From IMG/VR virus record IMGVR_UViG_2778261689_000004: DNA of 12,400 nucleotides; one strand, 5' to 3'. Under the pieces are notes generated by a model. It was not told the origin of the DNA. It saw only the letters and a program-made list of their open reading frames with translations, and searched no databases. This DNA is from a virus. Taxonomy: Duplodnaviria > Heunggongvirae > Uroviricota > Caudoviricetes. The position numbers were made by a program, and so were the translations under genes. Shown piece by piece: positions 1,984-11,695 of this stretch; positions within the stretch are counted from its first letter, which is position 1, and each line of letters starts with the position of its first letter.

Positions 1984-3007
<1,024 letters not shown>

Positions 3008-3011
<4 letters not shown>

Positions 3012-3319
3012 AGATATTTATGATGAGGACGCTCGTGCTTATTGGCAGGATTTTCAATCTTAAAGGAGTACTGATGCTGCAGATAAGACTCAACTTTTTC
3101 TGACAATTTTTCTGCTACTTCCAGGAAGACTTGCCGGACGCTCCTTCTGGCTGCTGCCTCATAAAACTCCAGCGCAGCTCCTTCAACACGGTCCATGGCG
3201 ACATCCAGGTCAAAAATTTCACCGTCAAAGCGTTCTTTGTCCTGTAAGGCTACAGTTACCGTAACTTTATTCTCAAAATTACGGACTCCTTTCACAACCA
3301 GTTCATAGTCTTGAGTCAT
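3008..3319 (-). CDS. ydfR: DUF1327-family prophage protein (YdfR-like), 103 aa
   Basis: ATG at 3317-3319 preceded by an AGGAGAG ribosome-binding site; sits between holin and endolysin as YdfR does in Qin. Confidence 0.8.
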
Positions 3320-3323
3320 TGGA

Positions 3324-3539
3324 TTACTCTCCTCTCGCAGCCTTACGCCTGTCTTCTTTAATCTTGAAATAAAGATTTGTCAGATACGTCAGCAGGCCAA
3401 AAACCAGGCTACCCAGCACACCGATTGCAGCCCACTGTGACGGAGTTACTTTATCGAGTAACTGCAATGCCCAGAAACCAGCATTACCCGCCGATGTGCC
3501 ATAGGCAACACCTGTTGTTAACTTATCCATTGATTTCAT
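3324..3539 (-). CDS. essQ: Phage 21-type pinholin (S21-like holin/antiholin with dual start), 71 aa
   Basis: [28 protein letters not shown]...: dual-start motif M-K-S-M, Gly/Ala-rich first helix, second helix, charged C-terminus ([13 protein letters not shown]); GAGG ribosome-binding site before the ATG at 3539. The 96-aa track ORF is an in-frame upstream extension. Confidence 0.85.
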
Positions 3540-4011: not shown

Positions 4012-4292
4012 GAGATTGTGGTGCTTTTTGTGGGAGTCATCCACTTACGCACTTTGTTTTGCCATGCCAGCAGTTAGCTTCTGCTGTAAAACTATTCATG
4101 CAGCAAACCTGCACTTCACCACAATGGTTAGCATACTTTTCCTGATTAAGATTTTGCCAAATATGCTAGCCATTGTTTCATGTATTGGACCTCCTTACTT
4201 TTTATTAAAGAGATCCAATATTCACTACTCTGTCCGTATCTCTACTCAGGCATCAGCCTTCTTCGTTATCGTATACAGACGAGCGATGAATT

Positions 4293-5442: not shown

Positions 5443-6195
5443 TTATCTCGTCACCTTCCTCAATTGCGCTTCCGCGTATGCTTCTTCCTGCCAGCACTTT
5501 GTTACCAGTTTACCAATGACGTCCGCATACCCCTTATACCACTGATAATCGGTCAGGTCTGGTACCAGCTTCTGGACATGACGTCGTGCCAGCGTGGTCG
5601 GTAAACGACTAAACCGGTTTCCATTACAACGCCCACAAATCTTATATACCGGTACGCCATGAAACCGGGTTCTTTTTTCATCCAGAACAATCCCTTTACC
5701 CTTACACCCTCTGCACGCTGTGCTGGCTTCGCCCTTACCATGGCAATGCTGACATAGTTCCTTCACCCATTCTTCCTTGATTACAGATTCCCCGCGTCTG
5801 TAGTGTTTCACCACTTCGCGCAATACATTATAAAATCCCGTACCTGAACAATGCTCACAGCGAGCCTTACTTGCCGCAGACCTGGAGTAATCAGCAAAGG
5901 CAAAACTCACGAGGTAAGGAATAATCTGTAACCGGATTTCTTCACTCAATTTGTTCAATGTCGGGTTATCCAGTGCCATCGCGTAATTTAGCAGGCCTTC
6001 AATCGCAAACTGAGGGTCCTGAACACCAACTTTTGCCAGAAATAAGGCCAACCCAAGTGGTGCTTTCGACTGCACCATCCCCTGCGCTGCCATTACATCC
6101 GTAATTGTTAAACAACCGGTGCCTGTCGCTGGAGCGTCATCGCTCAATTTTGGAGATTTTGGGGAGTAATATTTTGGTAAGGCTTCAAGGTTCAT
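5443..6195 (-). CDS. quuQ: Lambdoid Q-family late antiterminator, 250 aa
   Basis: Start chosen at ATG 6193-6195 (MNLEALPKYY...) with GGAG upstream; C-terminal Cys-rich motifs (CQHCHGKGE...CRGCKGKG); sits immediately upstream of the candidate late promoter. Confidence 0.85.
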   Translation of the reverse strand: MNLEALPKYYSPKSPKLSDDAPATGTGCLTITDVMAAQGMVQSKAPLGLALFLAKVGVQDPQFAIEGLLNYAMALDNPTLNKLSEEIRLQIIPYLVSFAFADYSRSAASKARCEHCSGTGFYNVLREVVKHYRRGESVIKEEWVKELCQHCHGKGEASTACRGCKGKGIVLDEKRTRFHGVPVYKICGRCNGNRFSRLPTTLARRHVQKLVPDLTDYQWYKGYADVIGKLVTKCWQEEAYAEAQLRKVTR

Positions 6196-6826: not shown

Positions 6827-6951
6827 CCATGCTGTCAGATTTTGTTGAGCAAGCAGCTCCAGTGATTCCGATGTCTGGTCCCTCTTATCCCTGCGCGCTA
6901 CTTAAGTATTTTTGATTCTATTCCGGCACCGTCCAGAACTTCAAACGCGTT

Positions 6952-6984
6952 GAAAATAAAAACAAAAACCCGCCGAAGCGGGTT
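6952..6984 (-). terminator. Rho-independent terminator of the relB-relE-hokD operon
   Basis: Stem AACCCGC / GCGGGTT with loop CGAA (6967-6984), followed on the minus strand by UUUGUUUUUAUUUU; about 70 nt downstream of the hokD stop. Confidence 0.6.
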
Positions 6985-7052
6985 AAGTGCGGGTGCGTTG
7001 AGGATGCCTGCCACATCAGAGGTGGCGAGGGATTTCTCCCCCGCCGGGTCTC

Positions 7053-7208
7053 TTACTCCTCAGGTTCGTAAGCTGTGAAGACAGCGACCTCCGTCTGGCC
7101 GGTTCGGATTCGTACCTCGCAGAGGTCTTTCCTCGTTACCAGTGCCGTCACTATGACGGTTAAACAGATGACGATCAGGGCGATTAACATCGCCTTTTGC
7201 TGCTTCAT
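7053..7208 (-). CDS. hokD: Hok-family type I toxin HokD (RelF), 51 aa (below the ORF-track cutoff)
   Basis: Hand translation gives MKQQKAMLIALIVICLTVIVTALVTRKDLCEVRIRTGQTEVAVFTAYEPEE; AGGAG ribosome-binding site upstream; immediately downstream of relE. Confidence 0.9.
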   Translation of the reverse strand: MKQQKAMLIALIVICLTVIVTALVTRKDLCEVRIRTGQTEVAVFTAYEPEE

Positions 7209-8878: not shown

Positions 8879-10719
8879 GTGGGGACAGTCCACAAAACTG
8901 CCAACTTCCGCTTCTTGCTCTTAGCGGACATTAGCATAGGCTATTTACCATAACGCCTCATTACGCGCACCGCCCAGACTGACTCAGCGCGTTTCTGGCA
9001 TATCCCCGGTAAAACAAGTAACAAACCACCCGAAAATGAACACCAGAAACGCGACTTAAGAATCTACCCTATGAATGGATATGCACTCAACCGAATCGAT
9101 CTTGGTTTCAATCTTTTTTATCGGGATCAGGCTTCTTTTTAGGTAACTTCGGGGGCTTAACTTGCTGATGACTTTGCGTTCGGCGCGTAAGCCAGGGATG
9201 GTCAGCTTTAGGTTTAACATAGTATTTTGAGCGTAAATCAATACGGGCATTATCCACTCGTTCATGGACACTCTTTTCATCATCCAGTGGTATAGGCTCC
9301 GGGCCATCAACATACTTTTCCCAGCCCAGCGCTTTCCCGTCATACAGAACGTTAATTTCACCGTCAAAGTTCTCGCATACAGTAACAACCGAATGCCTAA
9401 GTCGATATCCCCGGCCCTCACTGCGTACCTGAAACGCACTGCTTTTGTACTGGAAAGTGAGATTTTTAGACAGAACGCGCTTCGCCTGTAGGCTGAAGAT
9501 ATAACCCAGTTCCTCTTCAGAATGGTGCACATCAAGATGAGCATTATCAGTAGTACGAGGCGACGTAGCGAACCGGTTGTTATAGGCTTCAATAAAGGTC
9601 GGCAACCATGCATTTGCTGTTTCAATATCACTGATATTCTGAAGCCGCATTTCTTTGACCAGCCTGTCCTGTAGTGTCTGATTGGCGCGCTCTACCCGCC
9701 CTTTTGCCTGCGGGCTGTTGGCATGGATTGGCTCGATGCCCAGTGTCTTTATCGCACGAGTGAACTGGGTCAGCTCACCTTCCCGCTCTGGGTTATTTAC
9801 CCTGAATATACTGTGTCTATCAGAGTAGAGAGCGAGCGGTACGCCATGATCATTAAGGTAACCCCGGAGGGTTTCCATGTAAGCCCGGGTTGTTTCAGCA
9901 GGCACAAAACGCAACGCCATCAACGCACTGGTGGCATCATCAATGAAAACGATCAGTGTACATCTGGGGCCTCGATTTTCAAACCAGTCATGAGGTGAGC
10001 CATCAATCTGGATCAGTTCACCGTAAGATGGTCGTCGCATGCGGCGTTGATATATACGGGCAATTTTACGACGGCGTTCACGCCATAACCCCTCTTCTAT
10101 CATCCACTTTCTGAGAGTTTCAACGGATAAAGATAAACCGTGTATCTCGCGCAATTTTTCGCACGCAAACGTAGGTCCAAAATCAGCGTAACGGCCTTTG
10201 AGGAGTGAAATTACTGTTGCTCTGAATTCAGTAGAAAAGGAATTATTAGGACGCTTTCCACGTCGGTGGGAAACCAGACCAGAAGGCCCTTCATTTCTAT
10301 ACCGTTGCACCAGACGTTTAACCTGCCGAATAGAAATGCCAATGCGTGCCGCAGCTTGTTCCTGAATAATCTGAAGTCGGTGGAGTTCCTTATGACTCAT
10401 CGTAACAGTCTCTTTGATCATGAAAAATCCCCCAGAGAATTGTCTGGGGACATTTTAGAATGGTTCAAAGGGGACATTACAGCTTGGTGTTAACAATAGC
10501 CTGCTTCTCCGTGCCTTTCGGCACGTAAGAGGCTAACCTACATGTGTCTAGCATGAAATTGGCCTCAGATTAATGTTAAGCGTCTTGCAGGACGCGTAAT
10601 GTTAACTGGGGCTTTTCTCTATCTGCCGTTGGTGTCCATGCCCGAGGCAGATAGCCTCAAGCACCCGCAGTCATTCTACTTAACTAAGATTTCCCCGCAA
10701 ACCGTTTTTGTCCAGCACA
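8879..10719 (-). mobile_element. IS-like element carrying one DDE transposase gene; ends tentative
   Basis: The 437-aa transposase (9108-10421) is flanked by unusually structured non-coding DNA. Tentative termini are TGTGGGGACA at 8879 and the reverse complement TGTG-CT-GGACA ending at 10719; this short imperfect match is all that supports them. No clear target-site duplication found. Confidence 0.3.
9108..10421 (-). CDS. DDE-type transposase (rve integrase core with N-terminal helix-turn-helix; IS481 / ISNCY-IS1202-like), 437 aa
   Basis: N-terminal HTH-like region (IGISIRQVKRLVQRY), candidate catalytic residues in LIQIDGSPHDWFE, LYSDRHSIF and KGRVERANQTL (D, D, E with downstream basic residues), basic C-terminal tail. 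Not one of the K-12 insertion sequences I can recall. Confidence 0.85.
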   Translation of the reverse strand: MIKETVTMSHKELHRLQIIQEQAAARIGISIRQVKRLVQRYRNEGPSGLVSHRRGKRPNNSFSTEFRATVISLLKGRYADFGPTFACEKLREIHGLSLSVETLRKWMIEEGLWRERRRKIARIYQRRMRRPSYGELIQIDGSPHDWFENRGPRCTLIVFIDDATSALMALRFVPAETTRAYMETLRGYLNDHGVPLALYSDRHSIFRVNNPEREGELTQFTRAIKTLGIEPIHANSPQAKGRVERANQTLQDRLVKEMRLQNISDIETANAWLPTFIEAYNNRFATSPRTTDNAHLDVHHSEEELGYIFSLQAKRVLSKNLTFQYKSSAFQVRSEGRGYRLRHSVVTVCENFDGEINVLYDGKALGWEKYVDGPEPIPLDDEKSVHERVDNARIDLRSKYYVKPKADHPWLTRRTQSHQQVKPPKLPKKKPDPDKKD

Positions 10720-10755
10720 GTAAATATCCAACTAAACCAATGGAGTTCGCTGTAT

Positions 10756-10935
10756 TTACCGCCAGTATTCAATGCACATGACCGCCATGAACACCCCTAA
10801 AAAAAGGGCATTTATATATCCAAATATTAATATCAAAACATCAACTTTTTCCATATACCTTGCTGTGAAGATGATGGGCATACATGATGCGAACAACCAG
10901 AACGCAACAAACAAAAACTGCAATGCGTTTTTCAT
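10756..10935 (-). CDS. Small membrane protein with two predicted transmembrane helices, 59 aa
   Basis: ATG at 10933-10935 preceded by a perfect AGGAGG 6 nt upstream; MKNALQFLFVAFWLFASCMPIIFTARYMEKVDVLILIFGYINALFLGVFMAVMCIEYWR has two hydrophobic segments. The track ORF extends to a GTG at 10974 with no ribosome-binding site. Could correspond to the K-12 ydfW/intK-region ORF, unverified. Confidence 0.5.
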   Translation of the reverse strand: MKNALQFLFVAFWLFASCMPIIFTARYMEKVDVLILIFGYINALFLGVFMAVMCIEYWR

Positions 10936-11398
10936 TATTCCTCCTACAATCAATGTGCAATTACATTTAAACACACCTCAATTTGGCCGGACATATAAAT
11001 ATCTAAACCAGAAAAAATCACTTACATAGCGTTACAAACTCTTTAGTCTAAAGGTTCATCGTAAAACATTCCCCATACTTATCAGTCCGTTCCGCGCCAG
11101 GTAGCTCATTGCCTTATCTGGCAACCTGTAATCAGGTTTCCGCTTTTTCAGTTGGCTGGTCGTTTAACCGACATAGTTAATCCATTAATCTAGTTGCCGG
11201 ATGTTGGTGGATTTTCGCGTTTTAGTTGTTCATAAAAGTGCACAGCTTTAACCAGTTCTTCTGATGTAACTGGGACTGGTGAGGCAGTGAATAAGGCCTG
11301 AATTTGATAGTTCGGCCTGTCGTTACAATCCTCTTTTTTCGGTACATATTTCCAGTCACCAGACCACTACTTCCCCTGAAAGTCCGTAACGCCTTTTT

Positions 11399-11695
11399 TC
11401 ACGTAGGCTCTTTTGGTCGCATGATCTCGCCATCATCACTGGCTGCCTGTTCGTAGAGACCCACGATCCGCCCCCAGATCCACTGCGCACACGCCAAATC
11501 CTCCCTGCTAACGCCAAGCGCTCGCTGATCAATCGCGCCACCTTCATATGTGACACGCTGAACATCGATGTTCGGGCGCTCTTTCAAAGCCCAGAATGCT
11601 TCAGTGATTAATATCGTCGCCTGCTCCTGTGTCATTCCTGGTCGACATATCCAGGCATCCAGAGCCTCACGAGCCTGTTCAGGAGTGATTTTCAT
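11399..11695 (-). CDS. Hypothetical prophage protein downstream of dicC (YdfX-like), 98 aa
   Basis: ATG-initiated ORF overlapping the 3' end of dicC by 17 nt, suggesting translational coupling; position matches ydfX of K-12 Qin as I recall. Confidence 0.55.
   Translation of the reverse strand: MKITPEQAREALDAWICRPGMTQEQATILITEAFWALKERPNIDVQRVTYEGGAIDQRALGVSREDLACAQWIWGRIVGLYEQAASDDGEIMRPKEPT

Follow-up and report, generated by a model that had tools for sequence, protein, structure and literature searches.

A predicted two-helix membrane protein gene next to a hok/sok leader in lambda-like prophages of Escherichia coli

Hok possesses a single transmembrane (TM) helix and a periplasmic tail with conserved cysteines, and it is controlled by the Sok antisense RNA and by coupling to mok; the plasmid-borne hok/sok system (the parB locus of R1) is self-sufficient. 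GhoT/OrtT, a type V toxin of 57 amino acids (aa), has two TM helices, and GhoT damages the membrane when it is expressed. The class II holins or pinholins, such as S21 68, are likewise small phage proteins with two TM domains, both ends of which lie in the cytoplasm, and the superinfection-exclusion proteins T4 Imm, P22 SieA and HK97 gp15 are short phage membrane proteins made early or constitutively. The hok gene is enriched in prophages, where its function is open, and the passages drawn from the survey that reports this contain no discussion of the neighbours of hok (Hok diversity survey, bioRxiv 10.1101/2025.08.07.668861). Here we describe one such neighbour, a minus-strand open reading frame (ORF) of 59 codons in a stretch of 12,400 nucleotides (nt) from a virus of the Caudoviricetes (IMG/VR record IMGVR_UViG_2778261689_000004; the whole stretch is hereafter called the window). 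As an overall explanation, we favour the reading that this is a genuine gene for a very hydrophobic, 59-residue protein of the cytoplasmic membrane, belonging to an orphan prophage family of two clades, and we give this reading a probability of roughly 0.6.

The evidence that carries this reading comes from a second, deeply diverged clade. The ORF of the window runs from an ATG at 10935-10933 to a TAA at 10758-10756, and its product, which together with its close copies makes up clade 1, is MKNALQFLFVAFWLFASCMPIIFTARYMEKVDVLILIFGYINALFLGVFMAVMCIEYWR (59 aa). Searched exhaustively with phmmer, a set of 1.84 billion cluster representatives yielded, apart from near-identical sequences, P0041, a protein of exactly 59 aa that aligns without gaps over residues 1-59 at 41% identity (E 1.2e-8 for the whole library); its common form, P0046, reads MRKILMYLCISIWIVISCVPIILTSEYLTEASIMALMFGHANALCIGVFISIIYIECWR and stands for clade 2. 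The ungapped BLOSUM62 score between the two clades is 153, compared with -38.5 +/- 15.2 for composition-preserving shuffles (z 12.6), and because the best of 200,000 shuffles scored 43, the match is not explained by composition. At the nucleotide level the genes are 59% identical, with 58, 71 and 47% identity at codon positions 1, 2 and 3, respectively, and a Nei-Gojobori comparison gives proportions of synonymous (pS) and nonsynonymous (pN) differences of 0.716 and 0.338, equivalent to a ratio of nonsynonymous to synonymous rates (dN/dS, omega) of about 0.19 (Fisher p 9e-5). Stops occur in one or both genes in every other frame, and the pN/pS of these five frames is 0.64-1.25, against 0.47 in the frame of the ORF. 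Outside the ORF, the flanks of the clade 1 and clade 2 loci hardly align, with weak residual similarity upstream. Taken together, the equal length, the collinearity, the three-base periodicity and the shared context make a chance ORF very unlikely, and we conclude from this comparison that the ORF is a genuine protein-coding gene which has been under long-term purifying selection.

The paralogue also bears on where translation begins. Six codons before its ATG it has an in-frame stop, so that the ATG start and the length of 59 aa are fixed and a 72-aa extension is not conserved; a GTG start giving the 72-aa form was ruled out on the same ground. This form (10756..10974, with the GTG at 10974) is the only one present in the mechanical ORF list, and the original prediction, made from the letters of the window, was right that a properly started 59-codon ORF is listed there only with the GTG extension. 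That prediction also spoke of a consensus ribosome-binding site (RBS) placed 6 nt before the ATG; a perfect AGGAGG is indeed present, but its spacer is 4 nt rather than 6. We place the translation start at the ATG behind this motif. Matches to AGGAGG-N3-8-ATG number two in the window against 0.39 expected from shuffles, and in 25 of the 157 sampled clade 1 loci (about 16%) the variant AGGGGG replaces AGGAGG. The other match in the window, at 4179-4195 on the minus strand and about 100 nt downstream of cspB, precedes an 11-codon ORF (MKQWLAYLAKS). A-rich second and third codons favour initiation, and codons 2-3 are A-rich in both clades (AAA AAC and AGA AAA); the translation-initiation region showed no unusual RNA structure (folding z -0.16).

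Of 5426 complete E. coli genomes, 1568 (29%) contain the clade 1 ORF with its RBS, always at 95% identity or more and at 100% in ATCC 8739, and no more distant DNA copy of it was found among these genomes. Clade 2 is present in 1045 of them (19%), including NU14 and ATCC 25922, with at least 99% identity in 1038. No third clade was found in a profile search of 5.8 billion proteins, in tblastn searches of phage and plasmid collections or in a scan of GTDB with one genome for each of 185,579 species, and the same searches gave no copy outside E. coli and Shigella except a near-identical one on a small 'plasmid' record of Klebsiella oxytoca. As far as these collections reach, we regard the proteins as an orphan family of two clades confined to lambda-like prophages of E. 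coli and Shigella. Literature searches found no mention of either peptide sequence.

Annotation has largely passed this gene by. Nothing is annotated at the clade 1 ORF in any of 60 RefSeq records sampled evenly down the ranking, the clade 2 gene is left unannotated as well, and in all the gene is called in none of 85 sampled records. Entries in GenBank and UniProt describe a 'hypothetical protein' of 59 or 72 aa (e.g., A0A1Q9L2W4) and in one case a 'membrane protein'. The ORF is also carried by the phage genomes PhiR42_1, vB_EcoS-640R1 and vB_EcoS-813R8, and the phage GenBank records call the opposite strand instead, where an 85-aa ORF (10772-11029, plus strand) is named 'hornerin' twice and otherwise hypothetical protein. 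The expectation that annotation misses or mis-starts the gene thus agrees with the RefSeq sample and with the phage records. The same records could be read in another way, namely that there is no gene on the minus strand at all, the 59-codon frame having arisen by chance in T-rich DNA, or the antisense ORF being the true gene. The ORF is, after all, not called by RefSeq/PGAP, phage submissions annotate the antisense ORF, and AT-rich DNA is rich in ORFs, 87 of at least 40 aa being present in the window. We consider this very improbable, since in clade 2 the antisense frame contains stops and its pN is about equal to pS, whereas the 59-aa frame is the only one open in both clades and has a pN well below pS; the homology score (z 12.6) and the strong RBS with its ATG start also argue against it. 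The antisense ORF was accordingly rejected as a real gene, having stops in clade 2 and no coding-type substitution pattern, and its annotation in the phage records is likely a mis-annotation.

The product is predicted to be a two-helix membrane protein. Its grand average of hydropathy (GRAVY) of 1.27 is the highest among the Met-started ORFs of at least 50 aa in the window (HokD has 0.54), both hydrophobic stretches named in the original prediction are present in the 59-aa product, and an AlphaFold2 model places helices at residues 2-26 and 28-58 (mean predicted local distance difference test score, pLDDT, 74, from a shallow alignment). The proposal of a small two-helix prophage membrane protein is borne out by these values. 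Residues invariant between the clades are M1, L5 and L8 near the start; the first hydrophobic segment adds W13, S17, C18, P20, I21, I22 and T24, the second adds L36, F38, G39, N42, A43 and L44, and the C-terminal end adds E56, W58 and R59. Given K or RK near the N-terminus, an acidic loop in clade 2 and a final R, the positive-inside rule suggests that both ends are probably in the cytoplasm with a short periplasmic loop between the helices. Polar and helix-kinking residues within membrane segments usually make helix-helix contacts, and because Ser17, Cys18, Pro20, Gly39 and Asn42 are invariant inside the helices, the protein could associate with itself or bind a host inner-membrane protein.

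The conserved Ser-Cys pair, however, allows a different product. Residues 1-17 (K2, a 14-residue hydrophobic core and L-F-A-S) may constitute a predicted signal for signal peptidase II, in which case the gene would encode a small lipoprotein, akin to lytic or exclusion lipoproteins such as entericidin B, Cor and Llp, and not a two-pass hairpin. The mature product would then have 42 residues, with Cys18 as the lipid anchor on the periplasmic face and one C-terminal TM helix (33-55); such a lipoprotein is compatible with the overall explanation given above. Ser17-Cys18 is invariant and followed by Pro20 in clades which share only 41% identity, and both fit the PROSITE lipobox pattern PS00013 at Cys18, including the rules on position and charge. 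A stricter lipobox, [LVI][ASTVI][GAS]C, is matched in clade 2 only (V-I-S-C). Among 52 unrelated ORFs with a hydrophobic N-terminus (from about 2 Mb of phage loci), only three match the lipobox, but all three are Rz-type signal anchors, so that membrane helices evidently do give false positives. Furthermore, clade 1 has an unusual Phe at position -3, both proteins contain several other cysteines, residues 2-26 form one continuous helix in the AlphaFold2 model, and no lipoprotein family model matched. On balance we regard lipidation as unlikely, though deserving of attention, and retain the membrane hairpin as the preferred form of the product.

Qin-type cryptic lambdoid prophages that match the window at 100% identity occur in many E. 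coli strains. In an annotated record of such a prophage the order is ydfO, gnsB, cspI, the lysis genes rzpQ/rrrQ/ydfR/essD, cspB/F, ydfT (Q), a truncated ydfU and hokD, followed by relE, relB, ydfV, flxA, ydfW, a pseudogene of an ISNCY transposase (ISNCY being a family of insertion sequences, IS), an unannotated stretch of 650 nt, a pseudogene, a partial ydfX, dicC (cro-like) and dicA (cI-like); the 59-aa ORF lies inside the unannotated stretch (Table 1). In intact phages the order on one strand is cI, cro, cII, O, several small genes, the ORF, hok, a ydfU-like gene, rusA and Q. Since the ORF there comes after the replication genes and before Q, it belongs to the delayed-early 'nin' part of the early-right operon. 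Homology upstream of the ORF ends at about 11140 in 41 and at about 11400 in 47 of 96 IMG/VR loci. A plus-strand terminator-like hairpin with a T-run (11123-11148), antisense to the early-right operon, coincides with the end of homology at about 11140; it may terminate an antisense transcript or simply mark a boundary of the mosaic.

Table 1. Positions of the 59-codon gene and of neighbouring features in the 12,400-nt window.
Feature	Position	Strand	Basis or remark
59-aa membrane protein coding sequence (CDS), stop included	10756..10935	minus	Translation; 41%-identical 59-aa paralogue; coding-type substitution pattern
Shine-Dalgarno AGGAGG	10940..10945	minus	4 nt 5' of ATG (spacer AATA)
Upstream leader, about 205 nt, forming a mosaic module with the ORF	10936..11140	minus	Homology ends in IMG/VR loci
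Spacer from ORF stop to hok mRNA start, 89 nt	10667..10755	minus	Sequence reading
hok mRNA leader/sok region, detached from hok CDS	10495..10666	minus	Rfam RF01794, 104.1 bits, E 2.9e-23, full model
ISNCY-family transposase ORF, 437 aa, uninterrupted	9108..10421	minus	NCBIfam NF033594 (ISNCY_2), 456 bits
ydfT (Q)	5443-6195		
Lysis genes essD, ydfR, rrrQ, rzpQ	1984-3539		

K-12 MG1655 lacks the ORF. There, 2216 nt of the window (9293-11508), comprising the IS, the hok leader, the 59-aa gene and the pseudogene, are replaced by 91 nt, so that ydfW adjoins ydfX. Because K-12 lacks this segment, neither K-12 ribosome profiling nor the K-12 ORFs of the ydfW/intK region can address the gene. The window in turn lacks, relative to K-12, 1018 nt at 6879/6880 that hold rem and the 5' part of ydfU. 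Clade 2 is found in what is left of a decayed prophage at the ttcA/intR (Rac attachment) site, with the order zntB, dbpA, ttcA, an integrase fragment, a DUF1627 fragment, P0046, uspF, ompN and ydbK. In this remnant (L262 3984-6170, in B2-type strains) the 59-aa gene is the only intact frame among fragments of integrase, DUF1627, hok and an ABC permease.

What both loci share is the presence of hok sequence downstream of the gene. In the window, homology to IS-free prophages and phages ends at 10496, inside the hok ATG, and the sequence on the ISNCY side starts there. Within the spacer between the ORF and the hok mRNA, a promoter-like TTGCGG (10700-10695) is followed after a 16-nt gap by TAGAAT (10678-10673), which we infer to be the hok promoter. 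The hok leader lies directly downstream of the ORF in 129 of 130 evaluable clade 1 loci, with an intact hok 256-259 nt after the ORF stop in 76 of them and the IS junction of the window in 51. In clade 2 a 3' fragment of hok lies 55 nt past the stop (80.6% identity over 62 nt, E 2e-12; tblastn E 8e-5) and contains an in-frame stop. Judged by these loci, hok/sok accompanies the gene almost without exception. The reverse is not true, since the hok leader occurs in 4002 genomes and the ORF in only 1551, and the O157 prophages have a DUF551 gene directly beside the hok cassette, the homology to the window stopping at 10713, just upstream of the promoter-like hexamers of hok.

Such a constant position could mean that the 59-aa protein is a partner of hok/sok, whether as a modulator of Hok, as a protection from it or as a second membrane toxin in the cassette. 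The linkage in 129 of 130 loci, the hok remnant that also follows the deeply diverged clade 2 copy, and the lack of any terminator between the ORF and the hok promoter all fit this view. It is nevertheless rather improbable: hok/sok is far commoner without the ORF than with it, as the genome counts and the DUF551 arrangement of O157 attest, the plasmid system manages by itself, linkage across only 90 nt is expected from common descent alone, and the ORF of the window is intact despite hok having been moved 3.3 kb away. A search of the ORF region and the sok leader gave no meaningful repeat or complementarity between them. The linkage itself is real, common descent across 90 nt can explain it, and a functional tie is not proven by it.

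The displaced hok gene adds a further observation. hokD (7053-7208, minus strand) keeps AGGAGAAGCAGGCT before its ATG, and its leader, cut exactly inside the hok ATG, is found 3.3 kb away. From this arrangement we conclude that the block relBE-ydfV-flxA-ydfW/ISNCY separates hokD from its Sok/mok control region. K-12 is without the hok leader altogether; the window therefore preserves the 'missing' regulatory leader of K-12 hokD (relF), and shows how hokD lost Sok control. Immediately past the 3' end of hokD and ahead of the truncated ydfU and Q, at 6963-7044 on the minus strand, a sub-threshold Rfam match to the Hfq-binding small RNA IsrK was seen (25 bits against a gathering threshold of 50, E 0.05).

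The original prediction had set the ORF just outside the end of an IS and suggested that an outward-reading IS promoter could affect it. An ISNCY element is indeed nearby, but 260 nt separate the ORF from the junction at 10495/10496, and this interval holds a 172-nt remnant of the hok/sok leader. Annotated ydfW (9108-9257), which K-12 also has, corresponds to the last 49 codons of the 437-aa transposase ORF. The ORF shares its strand with the transposase and lies upstream of it (10935 to 10756 against 10421 to 9108), so that it is read in the direction of the IS, and an IS promoter therefore cannot drive it, transcription that leaves this end of the IS being plus-strand and antisense to the ORF. 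Apart from the proximity of the element, little speaks for expression driven or altered by the IS, and we give this explanation almost no weight: 76 of 130 related loci have the same ORF and no IS, and a promoter scan found no sigma-70-like site at 10300-11500 on either strand.

From the upstream genes through the ORF to the hok promoter, no minus-strand terminator was detected. Because neither a promoter nor a terminator of its own was found, the ORF is expected to be co-transcribed from the early promoter on the cro side; a moron-like arrangement, with a promoter of its own upstream and a terminator of its own downstream, was not found in the window. In clade 2 a TGnTATAAT-like element lies about 72 nt upstream, read by eye and absent from the list of the promoter scan, and constitutive expression of that copy is possible.

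The way in which the protein may act can be outlined as follows. The gene lies on the strand of the early-right operon (cro/dicC to Q), between the replication genes and Q. A repressor of the DicA/cI type would keep the early promoter off in the lysogen, and the protein would probably be made as a delayed-early product once repression is lifted, and not in the quiescent lysogen. It may then act at the membrane by self-association or through a host inner-membrane partner. The likely outcome would be that the membrane is perturbed or that one of its functions, such as the entry of other phages, is blocked, and over-expression would probably be toxic. A toxin, a superinfection-exclusion factor and a lysis modulator are all possible functions; the gene lies outside the lysis cassette, and family searches gave no match to a toxin, holin or defence family.

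Whether the copy in the window still serves such a function depends on the variation within clade 1. Loci were gathered regardless of reading frame, by an exact RBS-spanning pattern in IMG/VR and a 5'-untranslated-region pattern in metagenomes. Frame-disrupting variation among relatives, which the original prediction would have counted against the ORF, was rare: all 59 codons are kept in 153 of the 157 evaluable loci, and the divergent paralogue bears the mark of purifying selection. Of the four broken loci, two carry a rearrangement or insertion at codon 41 and one carries such a change at codon 25, and the fourth is frameshifted in a run of seven T residues. As the copies are so similar, however, the intactness of clade 1 says little. 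The T7 run (C TTT TTT A; 10797-10803, codons 44-46) is a frameshift hot spot; programmed -1 frameshifting at this U_UUU_UUA-like slippery heptamer is unlikely, as the heptamer is not conserved in clade 2. Several copies (P0026, P0027, P0042 and metagenome loci) contain different inserts after codon 41 (between GYI and N), and in one copy the end of an IS1 interrupts codons 22-23 (translated GDAANLLI). The AT-rich ORF seems to attract insertions.

A number of findings weigh against a maintained gene of the kind we propose. Between the clades, pS is close to saturation, the paralogue was found through protein similarity, which biases pN downwards, and both clades are nearly clonal, so that effectively only two independent lineages are compared. 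Within clade 1, the ten segregating sites of the ORF divide into nine nonsynonymous and one synonymous, a ratio which fits neutrality (p 0.40) and not an omega of 0.19 (p 0.004), the sites being too few for a within-clade dN/dS to be decisive; their density is 5.6% in the ORF against 9.5% in the flanks, a difference that is not significant (p 0.18). The T7 run is frameshifted in a minority of database sequences, and several variants end in ...FFRGVHGGHVH or similar. Protein and profile searches, to which the original prediction had looked for support, brought out the 41%-identical second clade but no known family: neither clade matches Pfam, PHROGs, NCBIfam or PADLOC, with sub-threshold hits to DUF4212 (13.9 bits against a cut-off of 30, and no other Pfam match at E up to 10) and phrog_6298 only. 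A profile search of PDB sequences gave no relative, and the AlphaFold2 model, compared with BFVD by Foldseek, gave generic helical hairpins only (E of at least 1.3; holins at E above 4).

The shallow comparisons within clade 1 cannot demonstrate selection and, if anything, suggest relaxation. It is possible, if somewhat unlikely, that the window copy is a relic, once functional and now neither expressed nor selected in cryptic Qin-type prophages, in which too little time has passed for decay. The 9:1 ratio of nonsynonymous to synonymous sites is incompatible with the long-term omega, and with at least 95% identity in all 1568 genomes the intact frame carries little information. The surrounding prophage has itself decayed (hok cut from its leader, an upstream pseudogene, the truncated ydfU and the IS), the segment has been lost from K-12, and some copies carry IS1 or other insertions or T-run frameshifts. 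On the other side, an intact copy is found in inducible phages, and the clade 2 ORF has stayed intact beside decayed neighbours. The frequent substitutions of clade 1 are conservative (A16V, V31I, I37M and M28I), the conservativeness of the amino-acid changes by BLOSUM being weak and not significant (p 0.09-0.13), and the excess of nonsynonymous changes fits diversifying selection on a protein of the phage-host interface equally well. Our preferred reading of a genuine membrane protein gene holds for the family, and selection on the intact gene in the cryptic prophage of the window appears to be relaxed now.

A small hydrophobic prophage protein without an assigned function is in itself not surprising. 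The gene is of interest first because small membrane proteins are under-annotated, and it provides a concrete and well-supported example; being absent from K-12, it could never have been found by standard small-protein screens. Second, its constant position beside hok/sok may offer a lead to assays of toxicity, lipidation, Hok action, lysis timing and phage exclusion. A bolder proposal is that the gene encodes a previously unrecognised partner of hok/sok (e.g., a lipid-anchored micro-protein that gates or complements Hok) or an early, phage-excluding micro-lipoprotein. We rate this as a long shot. Such a protein would have been overlooked so far because the gene is missing from the RefSeq annotation of about 2,600 complete E. 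coli genomes and has been deleted in K-12.

Compared with the systems introduced at the outset, the 59-aa protein shows partial likenesses to each. With Hok/Gef it shares a small size, as a very hydrophobic inner-membrane peptide of about 50-60 aa encoded by prophages in the same stretch of the early-right operon; it differs in having two hydrophobic helices, no match to Pfam Hok or NCBIfam (E up to 10) and no detected antisense partner. It also resembles the type I toxins as a small hydrophobic membrane peptide, given its GRAVY value. GhoT/OrtT comes near to it in length and in its hairpin of two helices, which is predicted for the 59-aa protein; however, there is no sequence or profile similarity (Pfam, E up to 10), the 59-aa gene sits in a prophage operon, and no GhoS-like antitoxin gene is adjacent, its neighbours being a pseudogene or hypothetical gene upstream and hok/sok downstream. 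The pinholins agree with it in architecture, but its gene precedes Q, is separated by more than 4 kb from the lysis cassette essD-ydfR-rrrQ-rzpQ, and matches no holin in Pfam or PHROGs. Entericidin A/B, Cor, Llp and Rz1 are similar in size, in an N-terminal K/R with a hydrophobic core and in the lipobox-like Ser-Cys, which is invariant here, yet no homology exists and the putative mature product of the 59-aa gene would keep a TM helix that those proteins lack. T4 Imm, P22 SieA and HK97 gp15 have no sequence relation to it (PHROGs, PADLOC), and no promoter active in the lysogen was detected for the ORF, but the rapid divergence of the two clades would fit an arms-race role like theirs. The gene is therefore best filed as a new, unnamed family within the small prophage-encoded membrane proteins.

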